A stretch of DNA of 42,079 bases, taken from Candidatus Taylorbacteria bacterium RIFCSPLOWO2_02_FULL_44_35. GTDB taxonomy: Bacteria > Patescibacteriota > Minisyncoccia > Phycocordibacterales > DSPV01. The stretch is from positions 1,257-43,335 of the forward strand of contig MHSF01000023.1 in assembly GCA_001822695.1 (NCBI GenBank), written 5' to 3'. Below are positions 7,045-29,431 of the stretch, in pieces. Every line of letters begins with the position of its first letter. Within the stretch, counting starts at the first letter, position 1. Under the pieces are notes generated by a model. The model was not told where the DNA came from, searched no databases, and saw only the letters and a list, made by a program, of their open reading frames with translations. Position numbers and translations under genes: made by a program.

Positions 7045-7063
7045 CGATGGAACGGCAAGGCAA

Positions 7064-15478: not shown

Positions 15479-17224
15479 TTACATTTTTTCCGGTGCCTGA
15501 ATACCCAATAACCAAAGGCCGTTTTTTAAAACGATGGAAACGGCGCGGGTTAAGGCAAGACGATAATTCTCTTCTTTAGAATTAATAATTTGATTGTGGG
15601 CGTAAAAATTATTGAAAGCGCTGGCTAATTCAATAAGATAAGTGGCGACATAATGCGGTTCGTATTCCGCCGCCGCCCGCGCCGCCACTTCCGGAAAGCG
15701 ATAAAGTGACCGTTCTAAAATCTTCGGACTCAAAGGTTCAACCTTGGAGAATTTTTTTTGGGTCTTTAAAGGTTGAACCTTTATTTCTTCGGTTTTTGCT
15801 AACACCGACCTCGCCCGAGCGTAGGTGTATTGCAAATACGACCCCGAATCGCCTTTAAAAGAAATGGATTTTTCAAAATCGTAAATAATATCGGCACCGA
15901 TATTCTGCTTCAAAATGGAATACTTAATTGCGCCGACGCTAACTTGTTCGGCAATTTTTTGCTTCTCTATCGCCGGTAAATCTCGCTCCGCCACTTTTTC
16001 CGCCACTAAATTCTCCACCGTGCTAATCAGCGACTCACCGGTAACGACATTGCCTAACCGCGACGACATTTTGCCGGAAGCGAACCGCAGCAGACCGTGG
16101 GAAATATGCTTTGTCTTTTCTGCAATCACCGGCATCACCTCCTCCATCGCTTTGAGTACTACCTTGAAATAGTCGCTCTGCTCGTTGGCGGTAACAATAA
16201 CTGACTGGTTTATATCCGGCTCTTTTTCAAACTTCGCTCTGTTTAGCCCAAGCTCCTTGGCCTCGTAGGTTGGGAGTCCTTGTGAAGTGATAAAAACTCT
16301 GGTGTGCAGCCCAAATTTTTCTCCTCGGAAGATAACGGCGTTTTCGCTTTTCTCAAACACCCCCTTCTTCAAAAACTCGGCGACAATTTTCTCGCCCTCA
16401 CGCCCTTCTTGGCTCTCAAAAAAGTAGTAATCAAACTTCGTGCCAAGCTTTTTATAGATTTCCTCAAAGTGCGCCAAACTTATCTTCCGCCCTTCTTCGT
16501 AGAGTTTGTTCACTTCCGGGTCTGACTTTTCAAAAATTTTCTTATTCAAATCATCAATTTCTATCTTGGCTTCGGGGTCTTTTTCATAAGCGGCCGATCC
16601 CATAACATAAGCTTGCCCCAACAGAGCAACGGCATCATTTTGAAAATTGAAAATTGAAAATTGAAAATTGTTCTTCAAAACTCCCCAAATCGCCTTCGCC
16701 ACATGAAGTCCGACATCGCCTTGCCAACAGGCGCGGACTACTTTCGCGCCGGAAAATTCAATAAGCCGCGCGATTGATTCGCCGACGGCGTTGCTCATTA
16801 AGTGGCCAATATGAAATTCCTTGAACGGATTAGGGTTGGTGTATTCCACCATCACCTTTTTGCCAGCGAGCGTTTGGTTTTTGCTGAAATTTTCGCCTTG
16901 GGCGAAAATTTCAGCCAGCGAGTCGGCAAAAAATCTCGACGACAGGTAAAAATTTATGAACCCTGCACCCGCGATTTCTGTCCTTTCTAAAAAGGCGAAA
17001 CCCCGCCACGGCGGGGTTTCGCCTTTATTCTTAATCTCCGCAACAATCTTTTCCGCCACCTCTCTCGGCTTCATCTTGAGTTCTTTGGCATACACCAACG
17101 CCACATTTGTAGAATAATCCCCATGCGCCAAATCCGCCGGGTGTTCAAGCAAGATTCCCCTCGCTTCAATATCTAAATTCTTTAATGCCCCCTTAATTAA
17201 ATCTGTGAGCTTTTCCTGAATCAT
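15479..17224 (-). CDS. argS: arginine--tRNA ligase
   Basis: 581 aa. HIGH-type FHIGHLMSNAVGESIARL, an N-terminal Arg_tRNA_synt_N-like region, YLQYTYARARSVL, and a C-terminal ...GIQAPEKM typical of ArgRS. Confidence 0.95.
   Translation of the reverse strand: MIQEKLTDLIKGALKNLDIEARGILLEHPADLAHGDYSTNVALVYAKELKMKPREVAEKIVAEIKNKGETPPWRGFAFLERTEIAGAGFINFYLSSRFFADSLAEIFAQGENFSKNQTLAGKKVMVEYTNPNPFKEFHIGHLMSNAVGESIARLIEFSGAKVVRACWQGDVGLHVAKAIWGVLKNNFQFSIFNFQNDAVALLGQAYVMGSAAYEKDPEAKIEIDDLNKKIFEKSDPEVNKLYEEGRKISLAHFEEIYKKLGTKFDYYFFESQEGREGEKIVAEFLKKGVFEKSENAVIFRGEKFGLHTRVFITSQGLPTYEAKELGLNRAKFEKEPDINQSVIVTANEQSDYFKVVLKAMEEVMPVIAEKTKHISHGLLRFASGKMSSRLGNVVTGESLISTVENLVAEKVAERDLPAIEKQKIAEQVSVGAIKYSILKQNIGADIIYDFEKSISFKGDSGSYLQYTYARARSVLAKTEEIKVQPLKTQKKFSKVEPLSPKILERSLYRFPEVAARAAAEYEPHYVATYLIELASAFNNFYAHNQIINSKEENYRLALTRAVSIVLKNGLWLLGIQAPEKM
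16640..16670. repeat. tandem heptanucleotide repeat (TTGAAAA) x4.4 inside argS
   Basis: ttgaaaa x4 then ttg. Encodes NNFQFSIFNFQN on the minus strand. Confidence 0.95.
16991..17026. repeat. 36-nt perfect palindrome inside argS (terminator-like)
   Basis: AAAGGCGAAACCCCGCC ac GGCGGGGTTTCGCCTTT. In frame, encoding ..KGETPPWRGFAF.. Confidence 0.95.
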
Positions 17225-17233
17225 AAAACCATT

Positions 17234-18247
17234 TTAGCACACAATCTGTTTTGCTCCCCAGAAATCAAGGATGGTTTCCGTTAATTGATAACAATTTCCA
17301 CACTTCAAAAGCCCGAGGTAAGAAGTGATTGATTCCTGTTTCGGATTTTCTACCAAACGCTTAAACATTCTTCTTTTTGTTGTCATCCGCAAAACTCGGT
17401 GGTTGGGAAAATGAACCCAACCCAAAAAATCCGCGCCCGAAGCAACAGTTTTGATAAAGATTTTATCAATATTAATTTCCAGTTTTAGTGTGTCCCGCAA
17501 AAAGTTTTTCATTTGGAACAAAATTTCCTCAAGCCAAGTCCTACTTTCCGAAAAAACAACAAAATCATCGGCGTAGCGGATGTAAAATTTCGCTTTTATC
17601 TTATGCTTCATAAATTGGTCAAATTCGTTAAGGTAAATGTTGGCGAATAATTGCGAAGTTAAATTGCCGAGTGGCAAACCTCTTCCGTAAAAACCAGCGG
17701 TGTAAAAACTGTTGATGATTTCAGCGAGAAGTTGAATAATTTCTTCATCAAAAATTCGCTTGCGTAAAATTCGCAATAAGATTCCGTGGTCAATATTGGC
17801 AAAAAACTTCCTGATGTCGCATTTCAAAACCCAACAGGATTTTGTATTGTTTTTGCTAACTTTCCAGACAAATGTACGAAAACGATTGATAGCTTTGTGA
17901 GTTCCTTTTTCGTTTCGGCAGGAAAAAGAATCGGCAATGAAAGTTTGGTCAAAAAATGGATAAAGTTTTCGATATACGGCTCGATGAAGCAAGCGGTCGC
18001 GAACACTTGCCTTGTGAATATTTCTTGGCTTCGGGTCAGAAATTCTGAAAGCTCGGTAACTACCGTGGCGATAGGTTTTTGCTCGCAAATCATTATGAAG
18101 CGAAATGACATTATCCATCAGACGCAAACTAAATTCCTGCACATCCAGCTTTTTTCTTTTTCCTTTCACAAATTCTCTCCAAGCGCCGAGCAAGTCTTCC
18201 AAAGAAATGATATCCTCGTAGCTATGGTTGAATTGAATCCCACTCAT
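17234..18247 (-). CDS. DGR reverse transcriptase (intact)
   Basis: LPLGNLTSQLFANIYLNEFD (DGR-diagnostic [IL]G.LTSQ motif), YADDFVVF catalytic box, and an N-terminal LLGAWREFVKGKRKK..PKPRNIHKASVRDRLLHRAV. Collinear with Bordetella phage Brt as recalled. The ATG at 18247 (MSGIQF) is preferred over 18322, which would overlap avd. Confidence 0.93.
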   Translation of the reverse strand: MSGIQFNHSYEDIISLEDLLGAWREFVKGKRKKLDVQEFSLRLMDNVISLHNDLRAKTYRHGSYRAFRISDPKPRNIHKASVRDRLLHRAVYRKLYPFFDQTFIADSFSCRNEKGTHKAINRFRTFVWKVSKNNTKSCWVLKCDIRKFFANIDHGILLRILRKRIFDEEIIQLLAEIINSFYTAGFYGRGLPLGNLTSQLFANIYLNEFDQFMKHKIKAKFYIRYADDFVVFSESRTWLEEILFQMKNFLRDTLKLEINIDKIFIKTVASGADFLGWVHFPNHRVLRMTTKRRMFKRLVENPKQESITSYLGLLKCGNCYQLTETILDFWGAKQIVC

Positions 18248-18277
18248 TCTATAAAGGTTACCCCCCCCCAACGCTTT
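18248..18277. promoter_or_regulatory. 30-bp RT/avd divergent spacer containing a C9 homopolymer (18261-18269)
   Basis: tctataaaggttaCCCCCCCCCaacgcttt lies between the RT ATG and the avd TTG. The paralogous spacer at 20629-20657 carries C8. Confidence 0.4.
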
Positions 18278-18661
18278 TTGCCAGTGGTGGAGAAACTTAA
18301 ACAAGGATATTTTCTTTGGCACCAGTGCCTTGAACTTTTGCCAAAGACCCAGAAATATTCCATTGGTAATCGTATAGATAAACTTTTGATTGAAAGTATT
18401 GAAGCCGCGGTAACTGCCACCTTTTTGCCAAAAGAGGAAAAACTGCCGTGGCTGCGATTAGCTATAAGAAAATTGGATACAGCAAAAGTTCTCCTTATGA
18501 TTGTGTGGGAAACAAAATCTTTGGATGATAAAAAAATCGTCGGGCTTTCAGAAATTTTAAATGATGCCGGTAAAATGCTCGGCGGTTGGAATGGCCAACT
18601 ACAAAAATACTTAAGAGAAAACTCCCCCAGAATTGCCCGAGGGCAAACGGGGGAGAAATGA
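18278..18661 (+). CDS. avd: Avd-like accessory variability determinant (four-helix-bundle protein), copy 1, TTG start
   Basis: LPKTQKYSIGNRID...KLDTAKVLL..WETKSLDDKK...LGGW. The same pattern appears in copy 2 at roughly half identical residues by eye. Only the 3' 384 nt of ORF 17786-18661 is used. Confidence 0.85.
   Translation: MPVVEKLKQGYFLWHQCLELLPKTQKYSIGNRIDKLLIESIEAAVTATFLPKEEKLPWLRLAIRKLDTAKVLLMIVWETKSLDDKKIVGLSEILNDAGKMLGGWNGQLQKYLRENSPRIARGQTGEK
18622..18655 (-). terminator. hairpin plus U-run immediately 3' of TR1, embedded in the avd1 3' end
   Basis: CTCCCCC...GGGGGAG outer stem with inner TTGCCC/GGGCAA. The minus-strand reading is followed by a T-run. The structure, but not the sequence, is conserved in cassette 2. 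Confidence 0.5.
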
Positions 18662-18667
18662 AGAGAG

Positions 18668-18793
18668 TTGCGACACGGCAAACGCAAACCCATTCTCATG
18701 ATTCCACTTGTTGTCGGGGTTGTCGTAGTAAGCGTTAAGCCACTGACCATTGTCGTTACGATTCGCGCTGAGCAGATTCGGGTCGCCGTCAGA
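18668..18793 (-). repeat. DGR template repeat TR1
   Basis: 126 nt. Asn-codon-rich (AAT/AAC) in the minus-strand sense. Aligns to 19122-19250 with 13 mismatches at TR adenines. Confidence 0.85.
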
Positions 18794-18857
18794 AATGTGC
18801 AGAATGCCTCCCATTTCACCACCCCTTGAATACTCTCGGGGTTGTATCGCATTCGGC

Positions 18858-18885
18858 ATCACAATGCCTTAGTATCTTGCACCAA
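18858..18885 (-). promoter_or_regulatory. candidate TR1 promoter (TTGGTG-16 nt-TGTGAT)
   Basis: Both hexamers and the spacing are conserved with cassette 2 (TTGGTG-16-TATGAT at 21225-21252). Confidence 0.35.
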
Positions 18886-19021
18886 GTATCTTCATTTTTT
18901 TTATTTTACGCGTGTCACTCCGTTTGAATTCTTAAACACAAACGCTCTCAACGCGCGGATACTGGATTCGGCGGAAAGAAACCATAGTCCCTTTCGGATT
19001 GGCCTACTACCGTGGCTTAGT

Positions 19022-19058
19022 ATACAAAAACTCTCGCCTGCTTGACACGGGCGAGAGT
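19022..19058 (-). terminator. intrinsic terminator of target gene 1
   Basis: ACTCTCGCC / GGCGAGAGT 9-bp stem followed by TTTTTG on the minus strand. Confidence 0.65.
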
Positions 19059-19121
19059 GTGAAAAAACTTAAGTCAAGGGACAGAGGGCTAGCGCAAAGG
19101 GTCCTAGGACTTAGCTCTAAC

Positions 19122-19250
19122 TTGCGACACGGCAAACGCAAACCCACTCCCATGATTCCACTAGTTGTCGGGGCGGAAGTCGTCGTCCGCGTCAAGCCAC
19201 TGACCAGTGCCGCCACGACTCGCGCTGAGCAGACGCGGGTCGCCGTCAGA
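19122..19250 (-). repeat. DGR variable repeat VR1
   Basis: Adenine-poor counterpart of TR1, lying at the 3' end of the 19104-19730 reading frame. Confidence 0.85.
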
Positions 19251-19730
19251 GTCGTGCACGGGTTCGTGCATGGCAACGATCCAGATCAGCCCCATGGCTG
19301 CGATCTCCTTGTCCGTGAACTTCTCACGGATGAGGCAGACCAGTTCGGCGTTCGGCTTCGAGAGCTTGCGCTTGTCGGCCTCGGCGCGAATCTTCTTCGT
19401 GATCCGATCGTTGTCCTCGAAGAGCATGCCCTTGAGAACGGCGACTTCAGTCGTCATGCCATTGGTCGGCTTGAAGTCCGGCGAACGGAGCACCTGCTTG
19501 GCGTAGTTTCTGACGCGGAAACAGTTGCCTTCCAGACGCTTGATCCAGTCTTCGCCGGTCGTGCCGTCGGAGGTGACACTGAAGTAGATGACACCGTCTT
19601 CCTCGAGCCACGAACGGGTCGGTTCCGAAACCGAGAGTTCATTGCGGAGAAAACGGTCAACCCCTTCCTCCCCGCCGAGTTTGTTCCAGACCGCTTCCAC
19701 GCGGCCGAGGGTAATATCGGGATATTTCAT
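19161..19730 (-). CDS. DGR target protein 1 (C-terminal VR), currently truncated by an in-frame TAG inside VR1
   Basis: Protein-like 189-aa ORF. The frame continues for 18 more codons to 19104 after the TAG at 19161-19163. Full length would be 208 aa, identical to target 2. Confidence 0.8.
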   Translation of the reverse strand: MKYPDITLGRVEAVWNKLGGEEGVDRFLRNELSVSEPTRSWLEEDGVIYFSVTSDGTTGEDWIKRLEGNCFRVRNYAKQVLRSPDFKPTNGMTTEVAVLKGMLFEDNDRITKKIRAEADKRKLSKPNAELVCLIREKFTDKEIAAMGLIWIVAMHEPVHDSDGDPRLLSASRGGTGQWLDADDDFRPDN

Positions 19731-19918
19731 AATATAATTGCCTTTCGTTCAACTGCTAGTTGTGGTTTATTCACCTCTTCCAGAAGTGAATGCTAGGCCG
19801 TTGTGGTCATAGCCAGAAATCCCCAGAAAAGGTGAGGGACTTTTGGCTATGACCGCGGCAAGATTTCAAGGTTCATTGAATTATGGATTATTCTAACAAA
19901 CACCGCCCCAAATTTCTG
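19731..19918 (-). promoter_or_regulatory. structured 5' leader of target gene 1
   Basis: 11-bp stem GGTCATAGCCA/TGGCTATGACC (19805-19815 / 19844-19854), plus the TGAACCTTGAAA box shared with the other target leaders. Confidence 0.4.
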
Positions 19919-20029
19919 CCCGAAATACTACCATAATTGCGCCATAAAAGTCAAGCAAAAATACGAAATATGGCTTTAAATAAAGGTATCTTGGCAAGGG
20001 GAAAATACATAAATAAAAAGGAAGCCGCG
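19916..20029. repeat. 114-bp duplicated promoter module (copy 1)
   Basis: Near-identical to 22238-22351. The first ~68 nt are identical by eye. Confidence 0.85.
19925..19954 (-). promoter_or_regulatory. target-gene promoter (TTGACT-18 nt-TAGTAT)
   Basis: Lies within a 114-bp module near-identical to 22238-22351. A third target-like gene has TTGACA-17-TAGCAT at the equivalent place. Confidence 0.6.
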
Positions 20030-20117
20030 GGCCGCCTGATACGAGGGCTCGCAGCGGACTTCTGCTTCTAACGGGGTCAATAACCAGGTGGGTAACTATC
20101 ATCTTGAAAATTCACTC

Positions 20118-20628
20118 CTAACCATGTTCAAAAATTCGCTTGCGTAAAATTCGTAATAAGATTCCGTGGTCAATACTGGCAAAGAATTTTCTGATGTCGT
20201 ATTTCAAAATCCAGCAGGTCTTGGTGTTGTTTTTGCTGACTTTCCAAACAAATCTACGAAAACGGTTGATGGTTTTGTGAGTTCCCTTTTCGTTTCGGCA
20301 GGAAAAAGAATCGGCAATAAATGTCTGGTCAAAGAATGGGTAAAGTTTTCGGTAAACAGCACGATGAAGTAAGCGGTTGCGAGCACTTGCTTTGTGTATG
20401 TTTCTTGGCTTCGGGTCAGAAATTCTGAAAGCTCGGTAACCTACCGTGGCGATAGGTTTTTGCTCGCAAATCATTATGAAGCGAAATGACATTATCCATC
20501 AGACGCAAACTAAATTCCTGCACATCCAGCTTTTTTCTTTTTCCTTTCACGAATTCTTGCCAAGCGCCGAGCAAATTTTCTGAAGAAATGATATCCTCGT
20601 AACTATGGTTGAATTGAATCCCATTCAT
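20118..20628 (-). pseudogene. DGR reverse transcriptase stub (N-terminal ~170 codons, frameshifted, no catalytic motifs)
   Basis: About 90% nt identity to 17747-18247. One extra C near 20440 splits it into ORFs 20118-20492 and 20416-20724. Homology stops at 20128, so the LTSQ and YADD motifs are absent. Confidence 0.9.
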
Positions 20629-20657
20629 TCTATAAAGGTTACCCCCCCCAACGCTTT

Positions 20658-21020
20658 TTGCCAGTGGTGGAAAAAACTTTATCGGCATACAAACTCTGGC
20701 AGGAAATATTGAAACTTTTTCCAAAAACGACGCGCTATTCTCTAGGTATAAAGATTGATGTTCTTTTCATTGAAATTTTTGAGTCAATTTCGACCGCGGC
20801 ATTTGCCGCCAAAACTGAAAAATCACCTTGGGTTCGGCGGGCAATAATAAAACTAGATACTTTAAAAGGTCTGCTACGGATAGCGTGGGAAATCAAATCA
20901 CTGGATAACAAGAAATATATCACCTTATCAGAACAACTTTCTGAAATCGGCCGCCAGCTTGGCGGTTGGCATAATCAGATTATAAAACAAAACTCTCCCG
21001 CAAAAGCGGGAGAGAAATGA
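20658..21020 (+). CDS. avd: Avd-like accessory variability determinant, copy 2, TTG start
   Basis: 120 aa. FPKTTRYSLGIKID...KLDTLKGLL..WEIKSLDNKK...LGGW. Confidence 0.85.
   Translation: MPVVEKTLSAYKLWQEILKLFPKTTRYSLGIKIDVLFIEIFESISTAAFAAKTEKSPWVRRAIIKLDTLKGLLRIAWEIKSLDNKKYITLSEQLSEIGRQLGGWHNQIIKQNSPAKAGEK
20993..21014 (-). terminator. hairpin plus U-run immediately 3' of TR2, embedded in the avd2 3' end
   Basis: CTCTCCCGC aaaa GCGGGAGAG, a perfect 9-bp stem. The minus-strand reading is followed by TTTTGTTTTAT. Confidence 0.55.
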
Positions 21021-21024
21021 GGAT

Positions 21025-21158
21025 ACTGGCGGGCAGACCGCCGAAGGGTTGTAGTCGTTCCAATCGTTGTCAAGCCAGTTGTAATTCCAGTGCCACTTGC
21101 CATCATTCCAGTACAGATACAACACATAACGGTTACCGTTCGGATTACGAAGAATCGT
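21025..21158 (-). repeat. DGR template repeat TR2
   Basis: 134 nt, rich in AAC/AAT/TAT codons. Aligns without gaps to 21484-21617 (offset 459). Confidence 0.9.
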
Positions 21159-21224
21159 ATAAAGTGTCTTCTGTTCCACCACCCCTCGAAGCTTTCGCGA
21201 TCTTGGGATTGAATCGTATTCGGC

Positions 21225-21252
21225 ATCATAATGCCCTAACACTTTACACCAA
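21225..21252 (-). promoter_or_regulatory. candidate TR2 promoter (TTGGTG-16 nt-TATGAT)
   Basis: Conserved with 18858-18885. Confidence 0.35.
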
Positions 21253-21395
21253 GTAACTTCATTTTTTGAAGTGTCTTCATACACCACTCTATCCAAAACC
21301 TTAGTTGTGGATACTCACGATGTATGGATACTGGATTCGGTAGCGGAAAACCGTAATCTCCCGCGTATTCACCTACTGCCGCAGATAATTTTAGC

Positions 21396-21427
21396 ATAAA
21401 AAAGACCCCGCGTTCGAAAACACGGGG
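21396..21427 (-). terminator. intrinsic terminator of target gene 2
   Basis: CCCCGUG/CGCGGGG stem (one G-U pair) followed by UCUUUUUUAUG on the minus strand. Confidence 0.65.
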
Positions 21428-21467
21428 CCGAGAACTAAATTCAAAGGATTCAAAAGACCTAAACGAC

Positions 21468-22094
21468 CTAGTTCTGAGGACTAACTTGCGGGCAGACCGC
21501 CGAAGGGTAGTAGTCGTACCAAGCGCGGTCAAGCCAGCGGTAATACCAGTGCCACTCGCCACCAGACCAGTCCAGAGACAACACAGAACGGTTACCGTAC
21601 GGACTACGAAGAATTGTGCCGTCAAAGAAAATATAGGTCGTATTGTCATTCGTCTTTTTCTTCCAACTTTCTGGAATAAGAGTTTTATCATTCCAGAGAG
21701 TCTCGAAAACCTTGGCGTTCAGACAAATGTGGCCCGCTTTCTTGAGACGCTTCAGCTTCTCCTCCCCGTTGATACTGATCTCATCTTTTTTGAGCATCGT
21801 CTCAAGACGAATTTTGCTGAAATCCACCTCTGTGAGAGCGAGCGACCGCTTGTCTTCCTCGTCTATGGTCCAACCACTACCGATAAACTCGGCGGGGTTG
21901 AAAGGGGTGGTGCGGTCGACGATGACCAGAATTCCAGCTTTCTGACTAAAGTGTTTGACCAAGTCGGACCAGAGGGGGTGGTCGGATGACTCGATGATAG
22001 ACTGAATTTCCTCCCCGTCTGCCTTCATTGCGCCAAGCTTTTCAGCGACAAGTTTCCCCATCTCAAACTGCTGACCGATTGTAATTATGTTCAT
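21468..22094 (-). CDS. DGR target protein 2 (C-terminal VR)
   Basis: 208 aa from the ATG at 22094 (MNIITIG). VR2 ends 13 nt before the stop codon. The N-terminal SSDHPLWSDLVKHFSQK motif is shared with the 28547-29189 paralogue. Confidence 0.85.
   Translation of the reverse strand: MNIITIGQQFEMGKLVAEKLGAMKADGEEIQSIIESSDHPLWSDLVKHFSQKAGILVIVDRTTPFNPAEFIGSGWTIDEEDKRSLALTEVDFSKIRLETMLKKDEISINGEEKLKRLKKAGHICLNAKVFETLWNDKTLIPESWKKKTNDNTTYIFFDGTILRSPYGNRSVLSLDWSGGEWHWYYRWLDRAWYDYYPSAVCPQVSPQN
21484..21617 (-). repeat. DGR variable repeat VR2
   Basis: 16 of 17 internal mismatches to TR2 are at TR adenines (hand alignment). Confidence 0.9.
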
Positions 22095-22240
22095 TCGTTG
22101 AAACCGCAATAACGGCGGACCGTGTCATCTCGTAGCGAGAGCTTATCGGCTGATCGTTAGTTGCGGAAAACAAACCATTTCATCAAAAAAACGGGTTGTA
22201 TTCCGCAACCAATTAAGCACTTTCAAAGTTCATTTAACTG
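22095..22240 (-). promoter_or_regulatory. structured 5' leader of target gene 2
   Basis: GTTGCGGAA...TTCCGCAAC hairpin (22160-22209), a conserved TCAGCCGATAAG box, and a third TTGCGG segment (22104-22109) next to the start codon. The same layout is seen at 29190-29337. Confidence 0.45.
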
Positions 22241-22351
22241 CCCGAAATACTACCATAATTGCGCCATAAAAGTCAAGCAAAAATACGAAATATGGCTTTA
22301 AATAAGGATATTTAGCAATAGAGAAATGCGTAAATAAAAGAGGAAGCCGCG
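22238..22351. repeat. 114-bp duplicated promoter module (copy 2)
   Basis: See 19916-20029. Confidence 0.85.
22247..22276 (-). promoter_or_regulatory. target-gene promoter (TTGACT-18 nt-TAGTAT), copy 2
   Basis: Identical to 19925-19954. Confidence 0.6.
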
Positions 22352-22557
22352 TTCTCATTCCTTAAATCCCGAAGGAAGTGGAAGAGAATCGCGGCTTTGT
22401 CGCCCCAGGGCGTTCCCCGATAAGAATCGGGGTATAAGGAGAGTTTTACCTCTCCTGCGCTGGTGGGACCAGCACTACCTGGTCTGAGCCAGGCGTCTAC
22501 CAGTCCCCCTTTGCCTTATGTTTGTCATGGGGGAACAGTTTTAAATCCTACGCCGGT
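22352..22557. other. hairpin-dense, GC-enriched non-coding segment downstream of tmk
   Basis: At least six consecutive local stems: AAGCCGCG..CGCGGCTT, CCCCGAT/ATCGGGG, AGGAGAG/CTCTCCT, GCTGGT/ACCAGC, CCTGG/CCAGG and CCCCC/GGGGG. Confidence 0.3.
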
Positions 22558-23181
22558 CTAATTTCTTGTCAAATCGGAAATTATTTTCAGGAAGTCATTC
22601 CTAACTTTGTCAATATTTTGATTGGCGTCAATTATTTTATGCGGCACATTTTTGGAAAACTCAAGAAAACCAGAGTGAACCCGTTTGTGAAAAGCCAGTT
22701 TGCGCTCGTCAAAATGGGTTTTCTTTACTCTCCGCAAAGCAACGCGCGCCAAGCCGATTTCTGGTTTGACATCAAAGAAAATGTAAAAATCCGGAGCTGC
22801 CTCTCGCAAATAAATTTCCCGCGTTTGCCAAAACAAATCCTTTAAATTCCGCGCGCCTTGGGCGCAAATTTGGTAAGCGTAAGTAGAAGAATCAAAACGA
22901 TCACAAATAACATTTTTGCCTCTTGCCAAAGCCGGTAAAATTTTATGCTGCAAATGGTCAGCCCGGGCCGCCCACATAAGACCGAATTGCGTTTCCGCTC
23001 CGGATTCTTTCGCCTCTTTTGACAAAACCAGCGTCCGAATTTTGTCGGCAAATTCCGTCCCGCCTGGTTCGTAGGTAAGCAAAAACTTTTTTCCAAACGA
23101 CGTTTCAGCAAACCATTTCAAAATCGCGGTCTTCCCGCTCCCCTCACCGCCGTCAACAACTATAAATTTTCCCCGTTTCAT
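22558..23181 (-). CDS. tmk: dTMP (thymidylate) kinase
   Basis: [15 protein letters not shown]-loop, about 207 aa, DRF/ YAYQ-type motifs. Confidence 0.9.
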
Positions 23182-24425
23182 TTTCGCAAGACCTCATTAA
23201 TTTTCTTGGCAATCTCCGTAAAATCTTTTTCTTGCTTACCGCGAGTGGTTTCCGCCGGCGTGCCGAGGCGGATGCCGGAAGGGTCAACCGGTGAGCGGGT
23301 GTCAAAAGGAATGGTGTTTTTGTTGACGATGATACCCGCTTTCTCAAGCCGTTCGCTCGCTTCTTTGCCACCGATTCCTTTGCCGTTCATCCACACATCA
23401 ACCAAAAGTAAGTGAGTGTCGGTGCCGCCGGAAACAATGCGCCAGCCAAGCCGCGCGAGCTCTCCCGCGAGCGCGGCGGCGTTTTTCACAACCTGCTTGG
23501 TGTATTTTTTAAACTCCGGTCTGGCGGCTTCTGCCAAAGCCACGGCAACCGCGGCAATTTGATTTAAGTGCGGTCCGCCCTGAAGGCCGGGGAACACGGC
23601 TTTGTCTATCTTTTTCGGCAATTCCCTTGCGCCTGCCCGACCAATCATGTTGGGCGGGTCTCTGCGTGAAAATATCATTGCCGCACGCGGACCCCGTAAG
23701 GTTTTATGTGTAGTAGTCGTCACCACATCCGCATATTCAAATGGACTCGGATAAACTCCTCCCGCGACCAATCCCGCGAAATGCGACATATCTACCATCA
23801 GATACGCACCGCAAAAGTCAGCAATCTCTCTAAACTTTTTAAAATCAATAATCCGCGGATAAGCAGTGTAGCCGGCAACAATAATCGCCGGTTTTTCTCG
23901 CGTCGCAATCTCTTTTATCTTTTCGTAATCCAAGACCTCCGTTTTTTCATCCACACCATAAGGAACTTGTGTCCAAAACTTCCCCGTCGCCGACACTTTG
24001 TGTCCATGCGTAAGATGCCCGCCATGAGCAAGTGTCATTCCCATAACTCTGGCTGGCTGGAAACTGGAATCTGGATTTCTGGAAGGAGGGCATAAGGCAA
24101 GATAAACGGCAAGATTAGCCGGCGAACCGGAAAGCGGTTGGACATTCACCGCCCATTCATCGGGCGAGAGTTTAAAAAGTTCAAGCGCCCGCTCCTGCGC
24201 CAATCGTTCCACTTTATCCATAACCTCATTGCCGCCATAATACCGCGCGCCCGGATACCCTTCGGCGTATTTATTAGTGAGCTCGCTTCCAAGCGCCTCC
24301 AAAACATCCTTGGAAACATAATTCTCCGAGGCGATTAAATTTATCACTCTCTTCTGCCGCTTCCTCTCGGCCTCAATTAGTTTTTTTATTTGGGTGTCTT
24401 TCATTGAAAAGTTTATAACCGACAA
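23178..24425 (-). CDS. glyA: serine hydroxymethyltransferase
   Basis: [36 protein letters not shown] (PLP lysine). Confidence 0.96.
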
Positions 24426-24448
24426 CTTCTAGCTTATAGCTTTTCGCG

Positions 24449-24483
24449 CAAAAAGAAAAGCCGCCCTATGTTGGAGGGCGGCT
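24449..24483 (-). terminator. intrinsic terminator
   Basis: AGCCGCCCT/AGGGCGGCT 9-bp stem followed by TTTTCTTTTT on the minus strand. Confidence 0.7.
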
Positions 24484-24502
24484 CATTTAATGAAATTGCT
24501 AG

Positions 24503-24946
24503 TTACAAAACAAAATTGATGGAATAGACCCGAATGCCACGCTCTTCTTGCTCTTGAGCAAAGAGCTTAAGGAAAAGGGTTATTCGTTTGCGAGAGCAGT
24601 TAATGGTGTGCGCCAAGGGAGAACCCACTAAACTGCTACAAACTTTTGGAACAGCAACCCATTTTTGCCTAGGCCGGTTCTTTTTTCTTCTTGCCGAAAC
24701 AAATCCATCCCCACAGGCCCATACAAAATCCCCTCTTGGCAAAATCGTTGTAAAATCGTCTTTGTATTTCGGAAAGAGTTCTGCGTCCAGGGACAGATTT
24801 TCTAGTACCCCAAAGTGATATGACCAAACCAAACCAGGACATGACTTTCGCAGTAGCGACAATGCTTTCGCAAACCCAAATACATAATTCACTTCTAAGA
24901 ACAACTGGATTTGAGCAAAAATCTCCCTGAGCGTTCTTAATCCCAA
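24503..24946 (-). CDS. hypothetical protein (TTG start; possibly the 3' part of a frameshifted gene)
   Basis: 147-aa ORF with no recognisable motif. A 40-codon ATG ORF (24937-25059) overlaps its start in another frame. Confidence 0.35.
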   Translation of the reverse strand: MGLRTLREIFAQIQLFLEVNYVFGFAKALSLLRKSCPGLVWSYHFGVLENLSLDAELFPKYKDDFTTILPRGDFVWACGDGFVSARRKKNRPRQKWVAVPKVCSSLVGSPLAHTINCSRKRITLFLKLFAQEQEERGIRVYSINFVL

Positions 24947-25201
24947 TCCTCCAATATCAGTGGGATTATCCTCTCCCCGCAGGAATCGGTCAAAACGTAG
25001 CGGATAATTCCAAAAGCTCTTAAACCTACGGTTTTTGATTGTTTTGTTATTTTTTTCATACAGTCTTTTTGAGGTTTCGCAAACTTTTTCACCACTCTAC
25101 GGCAGGTGACGCCTTTTTTCTATCCACAACATTATCACAATCACACATCTCTTGTCAACCCCATCAACCCCATTAGAAAACAATTCTCTAACAGGGTCAA
25201 T

Positions 25202-25239
25202 ATACACGCAAAAACAGCGATAGCATAAGATGTGTGTAT
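25202..25239. repeat. ATACAC-N26-GTGTAT palindromic element, copy E0
   Basis: atacacgcaaaaacagcgatagc...gtgtat. Overlaps the start of the PaaX-like gene. Confidence 0.7.
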
Positions 25240-25810
25240 GGGGATTTTGGAAGGAAAAGTCGCGAGAACTGCAAAACGCGACAAAATCCAAAAAGCAATT
25301 CTGCAAAGCATTGCCGTAGCTGGTCTGCTTAGTGTTGCTCTGCTCGCACCCAATGCTTTGCAAGCGCTCAAGCTCTTGGGCTGGAAACCGCATCGCCGTC
25401 AGCGCGAAGTTATTGCCCGTTCCCGCAATCGATTAATTGAATGTGGTCTACTCGTCCGCGATGAAAAAGGTTTTCTAAAATTGACCTCCAAAGGAGAAAC
25501 AAAACTTCGTGAATTAGAAAAGCGCGAATACCGACTTCCTCGCCCCAAACGCTGGGACAAAAAGTGGCGCGTGCTCATTTTTGATATTCCAGAAAAAAGA
25601 AAATATCTGCGGGAAAAAATCCGTAATACCCTGCGAGCCATCGGCTTTAACCAGCTCCAAAAAAGCGTCTGGGTTTATCCCTACGATTGTGAAGATTTGA
25701 TCGCTTTGCTCAAGGCGGATTTCAAAGTCGGCAAGGACCTGCTTTATCTTGTTGTTGATGAAATTGAAAACGACAAAAAATTACTCGAGTTATTCAAATT
25801 ATCCGAATGA
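25232..25810 (+). CDS. PaaX-like regulator (N-terminal wHTH-like region, C-terminal Cas2-fold-like domain)
   Basis: WDKKWRVLIFDIPEKRKYLREKIRNTLRAIGFNQLQKSVWVYP matches the PaaX C-terminal / Cas2-like pattern as recalled. The start may be the ATG at 25238. Confidence 0.55.
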   Translation: MCMGILEGKVARTAKRDKIQKAILQSIAVAGLLSVALLAPNALQALKLLGWKPHRRQREVIARSRNRLIECGLLVRDEKGFLKLTSKGETKLRELEKREYRLPRPKRWDKKWRVLIFDIPEKRKYLREKIRNTLRAIGFNQLQKSVWVYPYDCEDLIALLKADFKVGKDLLYLVVDEIENDKKLLELFKLSE

Positions 25811-25815
25811 ACTAC

Positions 25816-25855
25816 CATACACACGAAAACAACGACCGCTGTTTATTGGTGTATG
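25816..25855. repeat. ATACAC-N25-GTGTAT palindromic element, copy E1
   Basis: ccatacacacgaaaacaacgaccgctgtttattggtgtatg. Confidence 0.8.
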
Positions 25856-25947
25856 TAAAAAAATTTAAATTTGAAGCAAATACATCAACAAACACAACTA
25901 TATGCGAGATTGTGTTTTGATAAACAAAGTGTATGATTTCTTTAGTT

Positions 25948-26787
25948 ATGAAAATATACAATGATGTTCTTAAAAAAATAATGGAGGGAGGAGCAGACCG
26001 CAAGGGCCGCAACGGCTGGACGCGCGGTTTGTTCGCCATTCAAATGCGTTTCAATCTGGAAAAGGGATTCCCGGCTGTCACTACTAAGCAATTAGCTTTC
26101 AGTTTGGTAAAAAGCGAATTGCTTTGGTTTTTGGAGGGCGGCAAAAACGGCCGTTTAAACGATAATCGCTTAAAGGAAATCGCCGGCAAGGAAAAAACAA
26201 TTTGGACCGATAACGCTGAAGCGCCGTATTGGAAACCCAAAGCAAAATTTTCCGGCGACCTCGGCCGCATCTATGGCGTTCAATGGCGAAATTGGAAAAA
26301 ACCAAAAGGCGGCGCCGTTGATCAAATCGCCGACTTAATCAAAAAGCTCCGCGCCGACCCCTACAACCGCCGCTTGGTAGTAACCGCTTGGAATCCGGGC
26401 GAATTAGATGAAATGGCATTACCGCCCTGTCATATGATTTTTCAATTTTTCGCCGCCAAGGGCAAATTATCGCTTCATATGCTCCAACGCAGTTGTGATA
26501 TGTTTCTGGGTGTGCCGTTCAATATCGCTTCTTATGCCCTTTTGCTTTCAATGGTGGCGCAAGTAGTTGATATGAAACCTTACGAATGCGTGCTAACCTT
26601 GAATGATGCCCATATTTATCGCGCCCATTTCAAGGCAGTAAAGGAACAGCTCAAACGCAAACCATTGCGCTTGCCGAAACTTTGGCTCAATCCGAAAATC
26701 AAAGAGTTGGCTCAGTTCACGATGGAGGATATCAAGCTGGAAAATTATCAGCATCATCCGCCCATCAAGGCGAAAATGATTGTGTGA
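25948..26787 (+). CDS. thyA: thymidylate synthase (ThyA type)
   Basis: PPCHMIFQFF, LQRSCDMFLGVPFNIASYALL. The start MKIYNDVLKKI at 25948 was chosen. Confidence 0.93.
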   Translation: MKIYNDVLKKIMEGGADRKGRNGWTRGLFAIQMRFNLEKGFPAVTTKQLAFSLVKSELLWFLEGGKNGRLNDNRLKEIAGKEKTIWTDNAEAPYWKPKAKFSGDLGRIYGVQWRNWKKPKGGAVDQIADLIKKLRADPYNRRLVVTAWNPGELDEMALPPCHMIFQFFAAKGKLSLHMLQRSCDMFLGVPFNIASYALLLSMVAQVVDMKPYECVLTLNDAHIYRAHFKAVKEQLKRKPLRLPKLWLNPKIKELAQFTMEDIKLENYQHHPPIKAKMIV

Positions 26788-26793
26788 AAACCA

Positions 26794-26830
26794 AAGCTCG
26801 ACGGGCAAACCCGCTAGAGCTTTTTATTTT
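26794..26830 (+). terminator. terminator-like compound hairpin plus T-run between thyA and folA
   Basis: AAGCTC..CGGG caaa CCCG..GAGCTT followed by TTTATTTT, which abuts the folA ATG. Confidence 0.45.
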
Positions 26831-27337
26831 ATGAACAAACCGGCAATCAATATCATCGCCGCTGTCGGCAAAAATAATGTCATCGGCCTGAAAAATTCTT
26901 TGCCTTGGAATTTACCAGCAGATTTGAAATACTTCGCCCAAACCACCAAAGGCAAAACGGTTTTAATGGGTGAAAACACTTTTATCTCCATCTTAGAAAA
27001 AATCGGCAAGCCCTTGCCCGGCCGAAAAAATATTGTTTTGACAGACAAAAAGAATAAAAAATTTTCCGGCGTGGAAACGGTAAATAGCATAGGGGAAGCG
27101 ATGAAAATAATTGGTGATGAAGAAATTTTTGTCATCGGTGGTGCCAGTGTCTACCGACAAATGCTACCGCTAGCGGAAAAATTATATATTACCGAGGTAA
27201 ATTACAATGGACCCGGCGACGCTTTTTTCCCAACTATTGTCCAAAATAAATGGACTTTGGAAAAAGAAGAACCTCACATGAAAAACGATAAAAACAATTA
27301 TAATTACAATTTCAAAATTTACTGCCGCTTTATCTAA
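26831..27337 (+). CDS. folA: dihydrofolate reductase
   Basis: NIIAAVGKNNVIGLKNSLPWNLPADLKYF...VLMGENTF...IFVIGGASVY. Confidence 0.9.
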   Translation: MNKPAINIIAAVGKNNVIGLKNSLPWNLPADLKYFAQTTKGKTVLMGENTFISILEKIGKPLPGRKNIVLTDKKNKKFSGVETVNSIGEAMKIIGDEEIFVIGGASVYRQMLPLAEKLYITEVNYNGPGDAFFPTIVQNKWTLEKEEPHMKNDKNNYNYNFKIYCRFI

Positions 27338-27345
27338 ATAAACCC

Positions 27346-27386
27346 CCATACACCTGAAAACAGCGATCGCTGTTGGTTAGTGTATC
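27346..27386. repeat. ATACAC-N26-GTGTAT palindromic element, copy E2
   Basis: ccatacacctgaaaacagcgatcgctgttggttagtgtatc. The core aacagcgatcgctgtt is a perfect 16-nt palindrome. Confidence 0.8.
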
Positions 27387-27402
27387 TCGATATTTTAGAA
27401 TA

Positions 27403-27951
27403 TTAGAACTGGGCAATCAATTTATCAATTTGTTTGTGCAAATCGGTCAACGGGCCGTTGTTGTTTAATTTGTATTTGGCTTTTTTCATTAGCACTGGAA
27501 CAGCCAACTCGGTTTCGTATTGATGGTCTTTGAGAAATTGGTTGTAAGTTTTCTTAGCGTCGCCGGCATTTTCACCCCGCTTAACTAATCGTTCAAAACG
27601 AATTTCTGGGTTGGCATTAACCGCCACCAAGACGAAACCTTGGACCTTTTTCAAAAATCTTATGTCTGCCATTCGTCGGACGCCATCCACCACTACGATA
27701 TTACTTTTTAATTTAATAGTATCAGCGGCAATGGCTTTGGCCAAAATATCTTCACCAAATCTTTGCCGCAAAATCGTGGAAAGCCCTTGCATATTTTCGC
27801 GACTATTGGGTAAATTAATCCGTTCTAAAACATCACGCAAAATTGAGGAAAAGCGGCAACCGAGCGCGCTGTATTTTTTCTCCAAATATTTTTTGACCGT
27901 GTCTTTGCCGCTGGCAATCGGCCCCACCAGCCCTAAAATTGTTTTTGCCAT
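27403..27951 (-). CDS. P-loop nucleotide kinase (dephospho-CoA kinase-like / dNMP kinase-like)
   Basis: GLVGPIASGKDT Walker A, 182 aa. Context is nucleotide metabolism. The specific substrate is not assignable. Confidence 0.55.
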   Translation of the reverse strand: MAKTILGLVGPIASGKDTVKKYLEKKYSALGCRFSSILRDVLERINLPNSRENMQGLSTILRQRFGEDILAKAIAADTIKLKSNIVVVDGVRRMADIRFLKKVQGFVLVAVNANPEIRFERLVKRGENAGDAKKTYNQFLKDHQYETELAVPVLMKKAKYKLNNNGPLTDLHKQIDKLIAQF

Positions 27952-27952
27952 A

Positions 27953-28444
27953 TTACATATCCGAATAGGTCTGCATTTTGTTGTTAAGTTGTTTAAATTT
28001 TACGCCAGCTTCCTTGAAAATTTCCTTGCTTCTTTTGCCAGCATGATAATCATTTTCGGCCACCACTCGTTTAATGCCAGCGTTGATAATTATTTTGGCG
28101 CAAGTATAACAAGGACACATCTGGCAATACAAAACTGCTTCGGCGGTGCTGACACCAGATCGGGCCGCTTGGGCAATGGCATTTTGTTCGGCATGAGTAG
28201 TCCGAATACAATGGCGAGATTGCGTTCCGTCATCATTAATAACTGTATGCATTTCGTGCCCAACCTTATCGCAATGGCCACAACCAGCGGGAGCGCCAAC
28301 ATAGCCGGTAGAAATAATTCTTTTATCTTTAACGATAACGCAACCGGTCCGGCCTCGAGCGCAAGTTGCTCGAGCGCCAACCGAACGCATAATGCCGATA
28401 AAATATTTATCCCATGACAACCGTTTTTGCTGTGGTTTTTTCAC
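27953..28444 (-). CDS. dCMP deaminase (ComEB family)
   Basis: HAEQNAI ... CQMCPCYTCAKIIINAGI zinc motifs and an N-terminal SWDKYFIGI. The GTG at 28444 is preferred because the longer start (28507) lies in the loop of terminator hairpin 28490-28521. Confidence 0.85.
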   Translation of the reverse strand: MKKPQQKRLSWDKYFIGIMRSVGARATCARGRTGCVIVKDKRIISTGYVGAPAGCGHCDKVGHEMHTVINDDGTQSRHCIRTTHAEQNAIAQAARSGVSTAEAVLYCQMCPCYTCAKIIINAGIKRVVAENDYHAGKRSKEIFKEAGVKFKQLNNKMQTYSDM

Positions 28445-28451
28445 AAACGAA

Positions 28452-28480
28452 AGTATAAGCGTAAAAATAATTTTTGTAAA
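28452..28480 (-). promoter_or_regulatory. candidate promoter TTTACA-17 nt-TATACT, 7 nt before the GTG
   Basis: Hexamers read directly. Implies a near-leaderless mRNA. Confidence 0.35.
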
Positions 28481-28521
28481 TAAAGAAAAGACCCCGTTCC
28501 GATACACATCGGAACGGGGTC
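28478..28521 (-). terminator. strong intrinsic terminator
   Basis: GACCCCGTTCCGAT gtgt ATCGGAACGGGGTC, a perfect 14-bp stem, followed by TTTTCTTTATTT on the minus strand. Confidence 0.8.
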
Positions 28522-28546
28522 AAGAAGTGTCCAGGAGACCAAAGGG

Positions 28547-29189
28547 TCAAAGGATCCCAAGAAAGTTGCGGAGGAAAAACCGGTCAACAACACCCCACCC
28601 GCCGGCGCCAAACGAGGCCAGGCCGACAGGCCACCTCCTACCAACCCGGCGCACATCGACAACCGAGACGCTTCCGTTTTTGTTTTCCACAAAGAAGGAG
28701 TTGTTCCAACCATCGGTCCGAAGACCAACATCCTCTCCGCTTTCTTGGCGCTCAATGAGCGCCTCAATGGCAGGAAGTGAGGTGTAGCTGCGTTCCTTTG
28801 GGAGTTTTGGAAAAGGTAAGGATACTCTCGGCCACTTGCTTGAAGGTCGCGATCCCCGTCAGCTCGTAGATCTCGAACTGACTCGCATCCTGGGCGGACT
28901 GGTTTGTGGGCAGAAACTTGTCCAAGTCAGCGTCGCGGTAGTAATACCGCGTTTGGTTCGTGAAGCAGTCGGCGGTGGGTTTGGCTTCCGTCGCCGGAAC
29001 CGCCACCACTTTGCCGATAGAACGGAGGACGGATTTGATTTTCTGGCCGAAGTGTTTGACCAGATCGGACCAGAAGGGATGTTCAGATGATCGAAGCGCT
29101 CCTTTCAGGGCTTCCGCGTCATCATTCCGAGGAAACCGACGGGCAATCTGCGCCACAAGTTCGGCAAACATTTCGGGGGTAGTATTCAT
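28547..29189 (-). pseudogene. third DGR-target-like paralogue, split by a +1 frameshift
   Basis: N-terminal frame 28764-29189 shares SSEHPFWSDLVKHFGQK with target 2. A second open frame (28547-28858) encodes ..DGWNNSFFVENKNGSVSVVDVRRVGRRWPVGLASFGAGGWGVVDRFF... Combined length of ~213 aa matches the 208-aa targets. Confidence 0.6.
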
Positions 29190-29337
29190 TTTTTGTTAGC
29201 CGCAACAAAACGCGTATACCGTGTGCCTCGATGTGAGACCTTATCGGCTGACATTTAGTTGCGGAACACGAACTATTTCATTAAGAAACAGGCCATATTC
29301 CGCAACCAATAACTCAATTTCAAGGTTCAAAATTACT
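29190..29337 (-). promoter_or_regulatory. structured 5' leader homologous to the target-2 leader
   Basis: GTTGCGGAA/TTCCGCAAC hairpin (29258-29306), a TCAGCCGATAAG box, and a TTGCGG segment at 29200-29205. Confidence 0.45.
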
Positions 29338-29343
29338 GCCAAT

Positions 29344-29372
29344 ATGCTAGCAAATATTTGGTAGGTTGTCAA
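29344..29372 (-). promoter_or_regulatory. promoter TTGACA-17 nt-TAGCAT
   Basis: Consensus -35 hexamer. Same position relative to the leader as in the two DGR target genes. Confidence 0.55.
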
Positions 29373-29431
29373 TAGGGTAAAATGTGGCTCTGTTAAACGA
29401 TATTGTGGAAGCAAATACCCAAGTTAAAAGT

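Follow-up and report, generated by a model that had tools for sequence, protein, structure and literature searches.

The antitermination leaders of rRNA (rrn) operons combine a boxB hairpin, boxA and boxC and work with NusA, NusB, NusE and NusG and, in E. coli, also with SuhB and S4; at intrinsic terminators, the E. coli rrn complexes have little effect. In the lambda nut sites and N leader, the order is boxA, a short spacer and a hairpin, and RNase III cleavage of the intervening hairpin in the N leader relieves N-mediated translational repression. Leaders that depend on the NusG paralogue LoaP reportedly need an RNA hairpin so that the polymerase reads through intrinsic terminators, a processive antitermination that serves a specialised gene cluster. 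Moreover, a boxA occurs in the 5' untranslated region of non-rRNA transcripts, namely suhB of E. coli and Salmonella (PMC5725501) and CRISPR arrays. For suhB, translational control by a polymerase-tethered Nus complex was shown, and distances above 50 nt upstream do not preclude boxA activity (PMC5725501).

In this study, we analysed a window of 42,079 nt, the whole stretch of DNA considered here, from the 584-kb, 92%-complete genome (G000) of an ultra-small CPR/Patescibacteria bacterium. All relevant genes in the window, as well as the leaders, lie on the minus strand. The original prediction had described structured leaders upstream of paralogous DGR target genes and proposed that mutually exclusive pairings give them the topology of an attenuator or riboswitch. 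All of its listed features were recovered on the minus strand, where sigma-70-like promoters precede them, and the leaders are conserved, structured and cis-acting. However, the conserved leader RNA, which is uncatalogued, appears to be of a boxA/nut-like kind and not a riboswitch.

Cassettes, promoters and boxes

The three leaders belong to two DGR cassettes and one orphan target gene.

Minus strand: cassette 1, with promoter, leader 1, target 1 (19730-19161), TR1, inverted bAvd gene and RT (18322-17234)
Minus strand: cassette 2, with promoter, leader 2, target 2 (22094-21468), TR2, inverted bAvd gene and RT remnants
21158-21025, minus strand: TR2
29189-28441, minus strand: target 3, a frameshifted orphan paralogue with leader 3 and no TR or RT after it

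Cassettes 1 and 2 are tandem DGR duplicates whose segments are 79-96% identical (repeat finder). Pfam confirms the RT and the bAvd gene (PF22296, 48 bits), the latter on the opposite strand, and the cassettes have the B3 layout found in 90% of CPR DGRs (survey PMC5758913). The target-2 protein family occurs in 84 of 401 genomes of the order at E <= 1e-5, with 291 database proteins. Another contig of the genome carries one more short sequence paralogous to the middle of target 3 (G000:C17, ~7050-7170; KPTADCFTNRTRY...).

Additionally, the two cassettes, which are otherwise unrelated, have in common a conserved segment at 21198-21385 (also 18834-19012), located after the target terminator and before the TR (repeats D7 and D10). 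In metagenome contigs, it reaches ~10 times the summed depth of its surroundings and is thus present in many organisms. The segment may act as a TR promoter (TTGGTG, 16 nt, TATGAT, ~21250-21220) or belong to the DGR RNA as a conserved non-coding part. DNA contigs from four runs (groundwater and soil) contained strain variants, one of which links the two cassettes at the box; no RNA-seq run was found to contain the sequence. In a high-depth contig of run X3, the leader-2 box is joined to the base after the leader-1 box (22219 to 19863), which looks like a single-cassette haplotype generated via recombination at the shared promoter and box. A low-depth form of the joint, from 22190 to 19863 with 28 other letters between, was observed in X1-X3.

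All three leaders have a sigma-70-like promoter with an extended -10 upstream, and each carries one copy of a common box.

22247..22276, minus strand: promoter of leader 2 (TTGACT, 18 nt, TAGTAT, with TG before the -10 hexamer; consensus scan)
29344..29372, minus strand: promoter of leader 3 (TTGACA, 17 nt, TAGCAT, with TG before the -10), kept in six related leaders
19925..19954, minus strand: promoter of leader 1 (TTGACT, 18 nt, TAGTAT; consensus scan)
22221..22232, minus strand: boxA-like box of leader 2, TGAACTTTGAAA, its last 11 bases equal to the rrn-leader boxA of genome G070
29318..29329, minus strand: boxA-like box of leader 3, TGAACCTTGAAA, its last 11 bases equal to the rrn-leader boxA of genome G168
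19864..19875, minus strand: boxA-like box of leader 1, TGAACCTTGAAA

The promoters of leaders 1 and 2 are near-identical (repeat D4). From the end of the promoter to the box, the distance is 14-49 nt, where the promoters are those of the consensus scan and the transcription start is predicted. TTGAAA with GAATAT was considered as an alternative promoter and rejected because a 12-nt insertion in two related leaders, L034 and L036, breaks the spacing.

The common box, TGAACYTTGAAA, has exactly three copies in the window (19875-19864, 22232-22221 and 29329-29318), one per leader; elsewhere in the 584-kb genome, the exact sequence recurs only twice. Since three matches were reached in 13 of 100 shuffles, with one-mismatch matches counted too, the box count alone proves little. 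It is the placement of the box, and not its count, that carries weight: each copy lies 8-9 nt before a long hairpin and downstream of a sigma-70-like promoter. Pairing of the box with the start region was also considered and rejected, as the candidate complements, judged by eye, were inconsistent between leaders.

Folds and relatives of the leaders

Leaders 2 and 3 have in common GGTTGCGGAA...TTCCGCAAC, TCAGCCGATAAG, ACACGGT and a third TTGCGG beside the ATG, and they are 79-81% identical (repeat finder, D8 and D12). The two leaders align, whereas the DNA upstream of the promoters and much of the coding sequence do not. Their predicted folds consist of the following elements.

22157..22212, minus strand: P1 of leader 2, a 24-bp hairpin (17 + 7 bp) of the local variant type, from the MFE and centroid folds and covariation in 8 leaders
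22119..22150, minus strand: P2 of leader 2 (GCCG/CGGU) around hairpin P2a, with GATAAG on the 5' side and ACACGGT on the 3' side
22104..22118, minus strand: P3 of leader 2, a small hairpin CCGC...GCGG that holds the third TTGCGG, with the start codon (22094-22092) adjoining
29255..29309, minus strand: P1 of leader 3, 24 bp, from fold and alignment
29248-29218, minus strand: P2/P2a of leader 3, from fold and alignment
29206-29200, minus strand: third GTTGCGG segment of leader 3, with the ATG at 29189-29187

All three leaders are more stable than shuffled sequence, with z = -3.45, -4.12 and -4.60, and none of 200 shuffles was as good. The long hairpin of leaders 2 and 3 had been described as a kept 9-bp stem with a differing loop; the stem is indeed kept, but the supposed loop is itself paired, and P1 is a 24-bp hairpin with compensatory changes.

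To collect relatives of leaders 2 and 3, we searched the 401 genomes of the order with BLAST, which returned one real relative, in the same-genus genome G007, and pattern scans of genomes and metagenomes added five more distinct leaders, all before target-2/3 paralogues. Of the stretches matched by a two-anchor pattern (box ... AGCYGATAAG), 28 in metagenomes and 11 in genomes, only 9 were real leaders (6 distinct), and the others were chance matches. In the resulting alignment of 8 leaders (A4), 95% of the cells in P1, P2, P2a and P3 are paired, compared with ~40% in slid controls, and 8 pairs are changed on both sides. Covariation across the 8 leaders supports P1, P2 and P2a, as the original prediction had asked to be examined. 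The P2 helix GCCG/CGGU becomes GCUG/CAGU in 3 of the 8 leaders; this change shows that the predicted TCAGCCGATAAG and ACACGGT boxes of leaders 2 and 3 pair with each other to form a single helix, P2, which encloses P2a. Similarly, 3 of the 4 pairs of P2a covary, and in L036 P2a is swapped for a different sequence with the pairing retained. The third TTGCGG predicted near the start codon is present in leaders 2 and 3, where it can close the local hairpin P3; for P3, 75% of the cells are paired, and the register varies between subtypes.

In L034:1187-1341 (metagenome contig Ga0209542_10124132), the interior of P1 is inverted relative to leader 2: against leader 2, 26 of 32 bases agree in reverse complement vs 18 of 32 in the direct orientation, and the antisense fold is better. 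The hairpin has thus flipped between its inverted arms, and the apical sequence of P1 may not be important. An extra small hairpin lies between the box and P1 in both L034 and L036. Reading alignment A4 revealed no conserved leader peptide, and a mini-ORF in the P1 loop (ATG AAA stop) was rejected because it is unconserved and absent from L036 and L034. A U-tract terminator after P1 or P3 was not found in both leaders 2 and 3.

Leader 1 keeps the box and has a different hairpin, as the original prediction had stated.

19805..19854, minus strand: canonical hairpin of leader 1, GGTCATAGCCAAAAG ... GGCTATGACC (11 + 7 bp; fold)

Upstream of target-2-family genes in ~20 other genomes, we found a common design of promoter, box, spacer, long hairpin and ribosome site. 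The box is (A)GTTCTTTGA(W), followed by ~8 nt, often AACTTGCG; the base of the long hairpin is GTCATAGCCAAAAG or TTTGCCACAGCAGAAAG; and a small variable hairpin, and after it often TCCTCTAGCA, precede the ribosome site. The long hairpins of the leaders have 20-25 bp and loops of 5-7 nt without fixed sequence, and the leader-1 hairpin is exactly the family hairpin. In a ten-sequence family alignment, compensatory changes occur in 17 of the 21 predicted pairs, and 8 of the 10 sequences retain one particular G-U pair.

A covariance model of the family (R1) scores leader 1 (19769-19890) at 73.7 bits in the sense direction vs 21.6 bits in antisense. It recovers leaders on which it was not trained at 25-56 bits, with the sense score always far above the antisense score, and the sense folds of the leaders are 5-13 kcal/mol better than the antisense folds. 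Among genomes sampled across the class, R1 matches occur in 20 of 151. The genes behind 16 further matches almost all encode proteins of ~200 aa with DGR-type variable C-termini and one of several N-terminal domains; the leader thus goes with DGR variable-protein genes as a class. One false positive was a terminator before rpsO.

In the window's own genome, leader 1 is the sole R1 match; leader 3 scores 15.7 bits (E ~1), and leader 2 is unlisted at E <= 1. Leader 1 has the promoter, the boxA, the ~8 nt, the long hairpin with a GYCAYAGC...GCURUGRC base and the DGR variable-protein gene. Leaders 2 and 3 are a local variant and not canonical members: box, spacing and gene class are kept, and the hairpin is replaced.

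Several further arrangements were observed within the family. In L070:1265-1467, the arms of the canonical hairpin lie ~100 nt apart, with a terminator-like hairpin and a new promoter between them, and the predicted transcript starts with a GAACCTTG box directly before the 3' arm alone. In L082:1486-3021 (G019), two different DGR-type targets lie in tandem, each with a promoter, a boxA-plus-hairpin leader and a terminator; the second leader has a GAAC-type box (GAACGTTGAAAA), like that of the window. In L060 and L061 (G168 and G070), the target-gene leader has no long hairpin, and a boxA-like TGTTCTTTAAAAT or TGTTCTTTTAAAA abuts the Shine-Dalgarno sequence, an arrangement that recalls suhB.

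Mimicry of 5S rRNA helix II by the GYCAUAGC stem was considered and rejected: the genome's 5S reads CTTATCGCAGGGG, and RF00001 gave no match to the leaders. Pairing of the leader with the 3' region of the target gene, as between rRNA leader and trailer, was not found over 28 loci (mean z -0.08).

Identity of the box and proposed function

To compare the box with rrn leaders, we took the 16S leaders from 15 genomes of the order, masked the processing-stem motif next to 16S and ran a de novo motif search. The motif obtained, G[TAG][TAC]C[T]TTGA[AC]A[AT], lies just 3' of a promoter-proximal hairpin, which is the position expected of boxA. The rrn boxes GAACCTTGAAAT (G168) and GAACTTTGAAAT (G070) are identical over 11 bases to the two box variants of the window; the genome's own rRNA operon is unassembled, and this comparison is made with other genomes of the order. 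The rrn box of the same-genus genome G007, GTACATTGAAAA, is not identical to that of the window, which differs from the canonical GTTCTTTGA at positions 2-3. Compared genome by genome, leader and rrn boxes are unmatched: the leaders mostly keep GTTCTTTGA, and the rrn boxes vary.

With a matrix derived from the rrn boxes, the mean maximum was 8.6 for the sense strand of 29 target-gene leaders vs 4.7 for controls and 5.05 for antisense (Mann-Whitney p = 2e-8, with kin that are not independent). GYTCTTT[AG]A lies <=60 nt 5' of the hairpin in 13 of 32 hairpin-model matches vs 1 of 582 control windows. Five of the 32 matches have exactly GYTCTTTAANA, the boxA consensus published for gamma-proteobacteria (PMC5725501). 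A boxA mutant with positions 4 and 6 changed lost SuhB association (PMC5725501), and the window's box retains C at position 4 and T at position 6. Judged by its sequence, the window's box is a boxA.

The original prediction recognised no known riboswitch class, and Rfam 15 yielded no match at gathering scores (whole window) or at E <= 5 (17000-30000); however, a known element, which the original prediction had named among its refuting outcomes, explains the one box common to all three leaders, namely boxA. Upstream of the 16S genes, TTTGTTCCGTTC is nearly invariant at 25-80 nt in 13 of the 15 genomes (for example, L090 of G007 and L089 of G034) and presumably makes up the 5' side of the processing stem. 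In G007, insertions split the 16S gene.

The genome encodes NusB (G000:C1:9100-9489, 121.9 bits) and a single NusG (99.6 bits), and S10 is universal. A specialised NusG paralogue was considered and rejected, given the single NusG gene found. The RNase III gene (rnc, C1:10048-10437) lies beside nusB, ~560 nt away on the same strand (G000:C1:9100-10437). The Rho RNA-binding domain was not found in G000 or in five near-complete relatives (G007, G124, G093, G171 and G034), and a SuhB-type inositol monophosphatase was not found in G000; the best-studied role of boxA, protection from Rho, therefore cannot apply. Despite Rho not being found, the rrn leaders of the relatives of G000 have a clear boxA.

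Terminator-like hairpins flank the template repeats of both cassettes.

21404..21429, minus strand: intrinsic-terminator-like hairpin and U-run between the target-2 stop (21468) and TR2 (-17.9 kcal/mol)
20993..21014, minus strand: terminator-like hairpin and U-run directly after TR2
19026..19057, minus strand: terminator-like hairpin CTCTCGCC ... GGCGAGAG and TTTTT between target 1 and TR1, read from the sequence
18624..18643, minus strand: terminator-like hairpin after TR1

A strong terminator-like hairpin lies within ~80 nt of the target gene end at 26 of 30 loci, and where a DGR follows, the order is target, terminator, TR, inverted avd and RT. A polymerase travelling from the target promoter to the TR and RT must pass these terminators and ~360 nt of antisense avd, which would be a natural job for a processive antitermination signal.

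We favour, with a probability of approximately 0.55, the reading that the leaders are boxA-plus-hairpin 5' untranslated leaders of the three DGR variable-protein mRNAs that load elongation factors. What we obtained directly are the sequences and their folds, the covariation, the finding that the box is identical to rrn boxA, the distribution of the family, the nusB and rnc genes and the terminators; the transcription start, the binding of NusB/S10 and every functional consequence are what we infer. The transcript would begin a few bases before boxA, at the predicted sigma-70-type start site, and boxA would be where NusB-S10 (NusE) joins the RNA as it is being made, as in rRNA-operon leaders and phage lambda nut sites. 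Most likely, NusB/S10 together with NusG and NusA would bind the box, stay tethered to RNA polymerase and alter elongation. The outcome might be (a) read-through of the intrinsic terminators between the target gene and its TR and RT and/or (b) control of the translation start by the tethered complex, as in the E. coli suhB or lambda N leader. The 20-25-bp hairpin might serve as a boxB-like partner element or as an RNase III cut site that releases the message.

Several observations weigh against the boxA reading: the poor action of E. coli rrn complexes on intrinsic terminators, the reversed element order (boxA then hairpin, compared with hairpin then boxA in rrn leaders), the departure of the window's box from the canonical sequence at positions 2-3, its difference from the rrn box of G007, the searches in which Rho and SuhB were not found and the inverted P1 interior of L034. 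Read-through in particular is opposed by orphan target 3 and many remote targets, which keep the leader with no TR or RT downstream, and a TR with its own promoter may count against it as well. A stronger form of the reading, in which bacteria without Rho use the leader as a nut-like switch for processive antitermination that is dedicated to DGRs, is doubtful. In such a switch, only Nus-loaded polymerases, perhaps with a hairpin-binding partner, would pass the terminator into the TR and the RT gene, and transcription of the target gene itself would license the production of the mutagenic template RNA and RT and keep the two processes coupled.

Alternatively, the hairpin might mainly be an RNase III processing or mRNA-stability element, with the box incidental or a mark of the 5' end; stem cleavage would then determine both the mature 5' end and how long the target mRNA lasts. 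With 20-25 bp of nearly perfect pairing, P1 and the canonical hairpin have the usual size of an RNase III substrate. The rnc gene is present and adjoins nusB; a duplex of at least ~20 bp and the gene are thus both in place for a putative cleavage. In silico, making the 5' arm of P1 unavailable leads the 3' arm to pair instead with the third TTGCGG, close to the start codon. However, processing leaves unexplained why a box identical to rrn boxA lies 8-9 nt upstream in three otherwise different leaders, and class-wide. The conserved GYCAYAGC stem and the conserved G-U pair also suggest a recognition more specific than RNase III needs. As the main explanation, processing is thus unlikely; as a part of the boxA reading it would be compatible, as in the lambda N leader.

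An element acting as DNA would make the inverted repeat the operator of a dimeric regulator or a recombination or cruciform site and the box a second protein site on DNA. The better conservation of the stem arms than the interior, the flipped P1 interior of L034 and the recombination of strain variants at the box between cassettes (22219 to 19863) are consistent with such an element. In contrast, the pairs change by compensation and the half-sites are not fixed, the conserved G-U pairs work only in sense-strand RNA, and both the covariance model and the folding energies are strongly strand-asymmetric. Moreover, the arms of leader 1 and of leaders 2 and 3 are unrelated in sequence and occupy the same place. 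We consider this explanation quite improbable.

The originally proposed attenuator or riboswitch, in which the CCGCAA strand pairs with either the upstream or the downstream GTTGCGG copy and thereby gates translation, fares worse still and is highly improbable. The three segments do occur in both leaders 2 and 3, an alternative helix is feasible (-8.8 and -11.9 kcal/mol), folding in silico with the P1 5' arm blocked produces it, and at least 3 alternative pairs can form in 8 of 8 leaders. However, this helix of the P1 3' arm and the third TTGCGG has 3 invariant and 0 covarying pairs, and its departures are unpaired cells. P1 itself is worth -26 to -30 kcal/mol; the alternative is absent from the MFE and centroid folds and appears only with the 5' arm barred, at a cost of ~18 kcal/mol. 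Leader conservation sits in the 5' box and stem bases, and the structure is a row of hairpins with no conserved multi-helix junction holding conserved unpaired bases. Furthermore, the leaders have no Rfam match and no terminator or Shine-Dalgarno element for a switch to control, the third segment is absent from leader 1 and the canonical family, and the downstream genes encode DGR variable proteins, not metabolic ones.

Finally, we give hardly any credence to leaders with no function that resemble each other through recent duplication of the targets and their upstream DNA: the cassettes are tandem duplicates with 79-96% identical segments and target 3 is a broken paralogue, but leaders 2 and 3 align where their surroundings do not, and the same design with compensatory changes recurs in other families and orders of the class.

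This work adds that the window's unusual box matches boxA variants carried by real rrn leaders of the order, that a local hairpin with covariation of its own has replaced the canonical one in leaders 2 and 3, that the test of the alternative pairing was negative and that terminators flank the TRs; the search for Rho and SuhB, which found neither, is also new. The text of the DGR survey (PMC5758913) contains neither 'hairpin' nor 'promoter', and our literature search found no paper linking boxA and DGRs. A boxA before these genes would connect the Nus elongation machinery with targeted hypermutation for the first time, and its use where Rho and SuhB were not found would bear on roles of Nus complexes besides opposing Rho. 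The leader motif, which is missing from Rfam, could mark DGR variable-protein genes, orphans included. Additionally, a short element with clear predicted partners (NusB, S10 and RNase III) makes in vitro work possible without culture.

Comparison with known systems

Known DGR cis elements, the IMH and the GC-rich hairpin or cruciform downstream of VR (PMC5758913), are also associated with DGR targets and include hairpins. They lie 3' of VR and act in cDNA homing, whereas the boxA-hairpin leader lies 5' of the gene, ~600 nt from VR. LoaP leaders, like the DGR leaders, have a conserved leader hairpin; in contrast, LoaP leaders have no boxA, and G000 has one NusG-family gene.

The boxA of suhB and CRISPR arrays lies, as here, in the 5' untranslated region of a non-rRNA transcript. 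Those cases act through Rho, which was not found in G000, and have no conserved long hairpin partner.

The lambda nut sites and N leader have the same order of boxA, short spacer and hairpin as the DGR leaders, in which the spacer is 8-9 nt. The spacer between boxA and boxB in lambda is similar in length. A long duplex between the box and the start codon is likewise common to the lambda N leader and the DGR leaders. In contrast, the lambda boxB is a 15-nt hairpin, far shorter than that of the DGR leaders, and the DGR element is chromosomal and belongs to CPR bacteria. A 15-nt boxB with a GNRA-like pentaloop, as in a lambda-type nut site, was not found in the leaders, whose hairpins have 20-25 bp and 5-7-nt loops, and we know of no N-like protein or gene in the window's organism.

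The rrn antitermination leaders differ in having the hairpin before boxA; in the DGR leaders, boxA comes before a hairpin 45-55 nt long, and a protein gene lies downstream. The leader/trailer pairing of rrn operons was not found in the DGR leaders, nor were SuhB and Rho found in G000. The rrn and DGR leaders are alike in their promoter-proximal box beside a hairpin and in the presence of nusB in the genome, and within the order they have the same boxA sequence.
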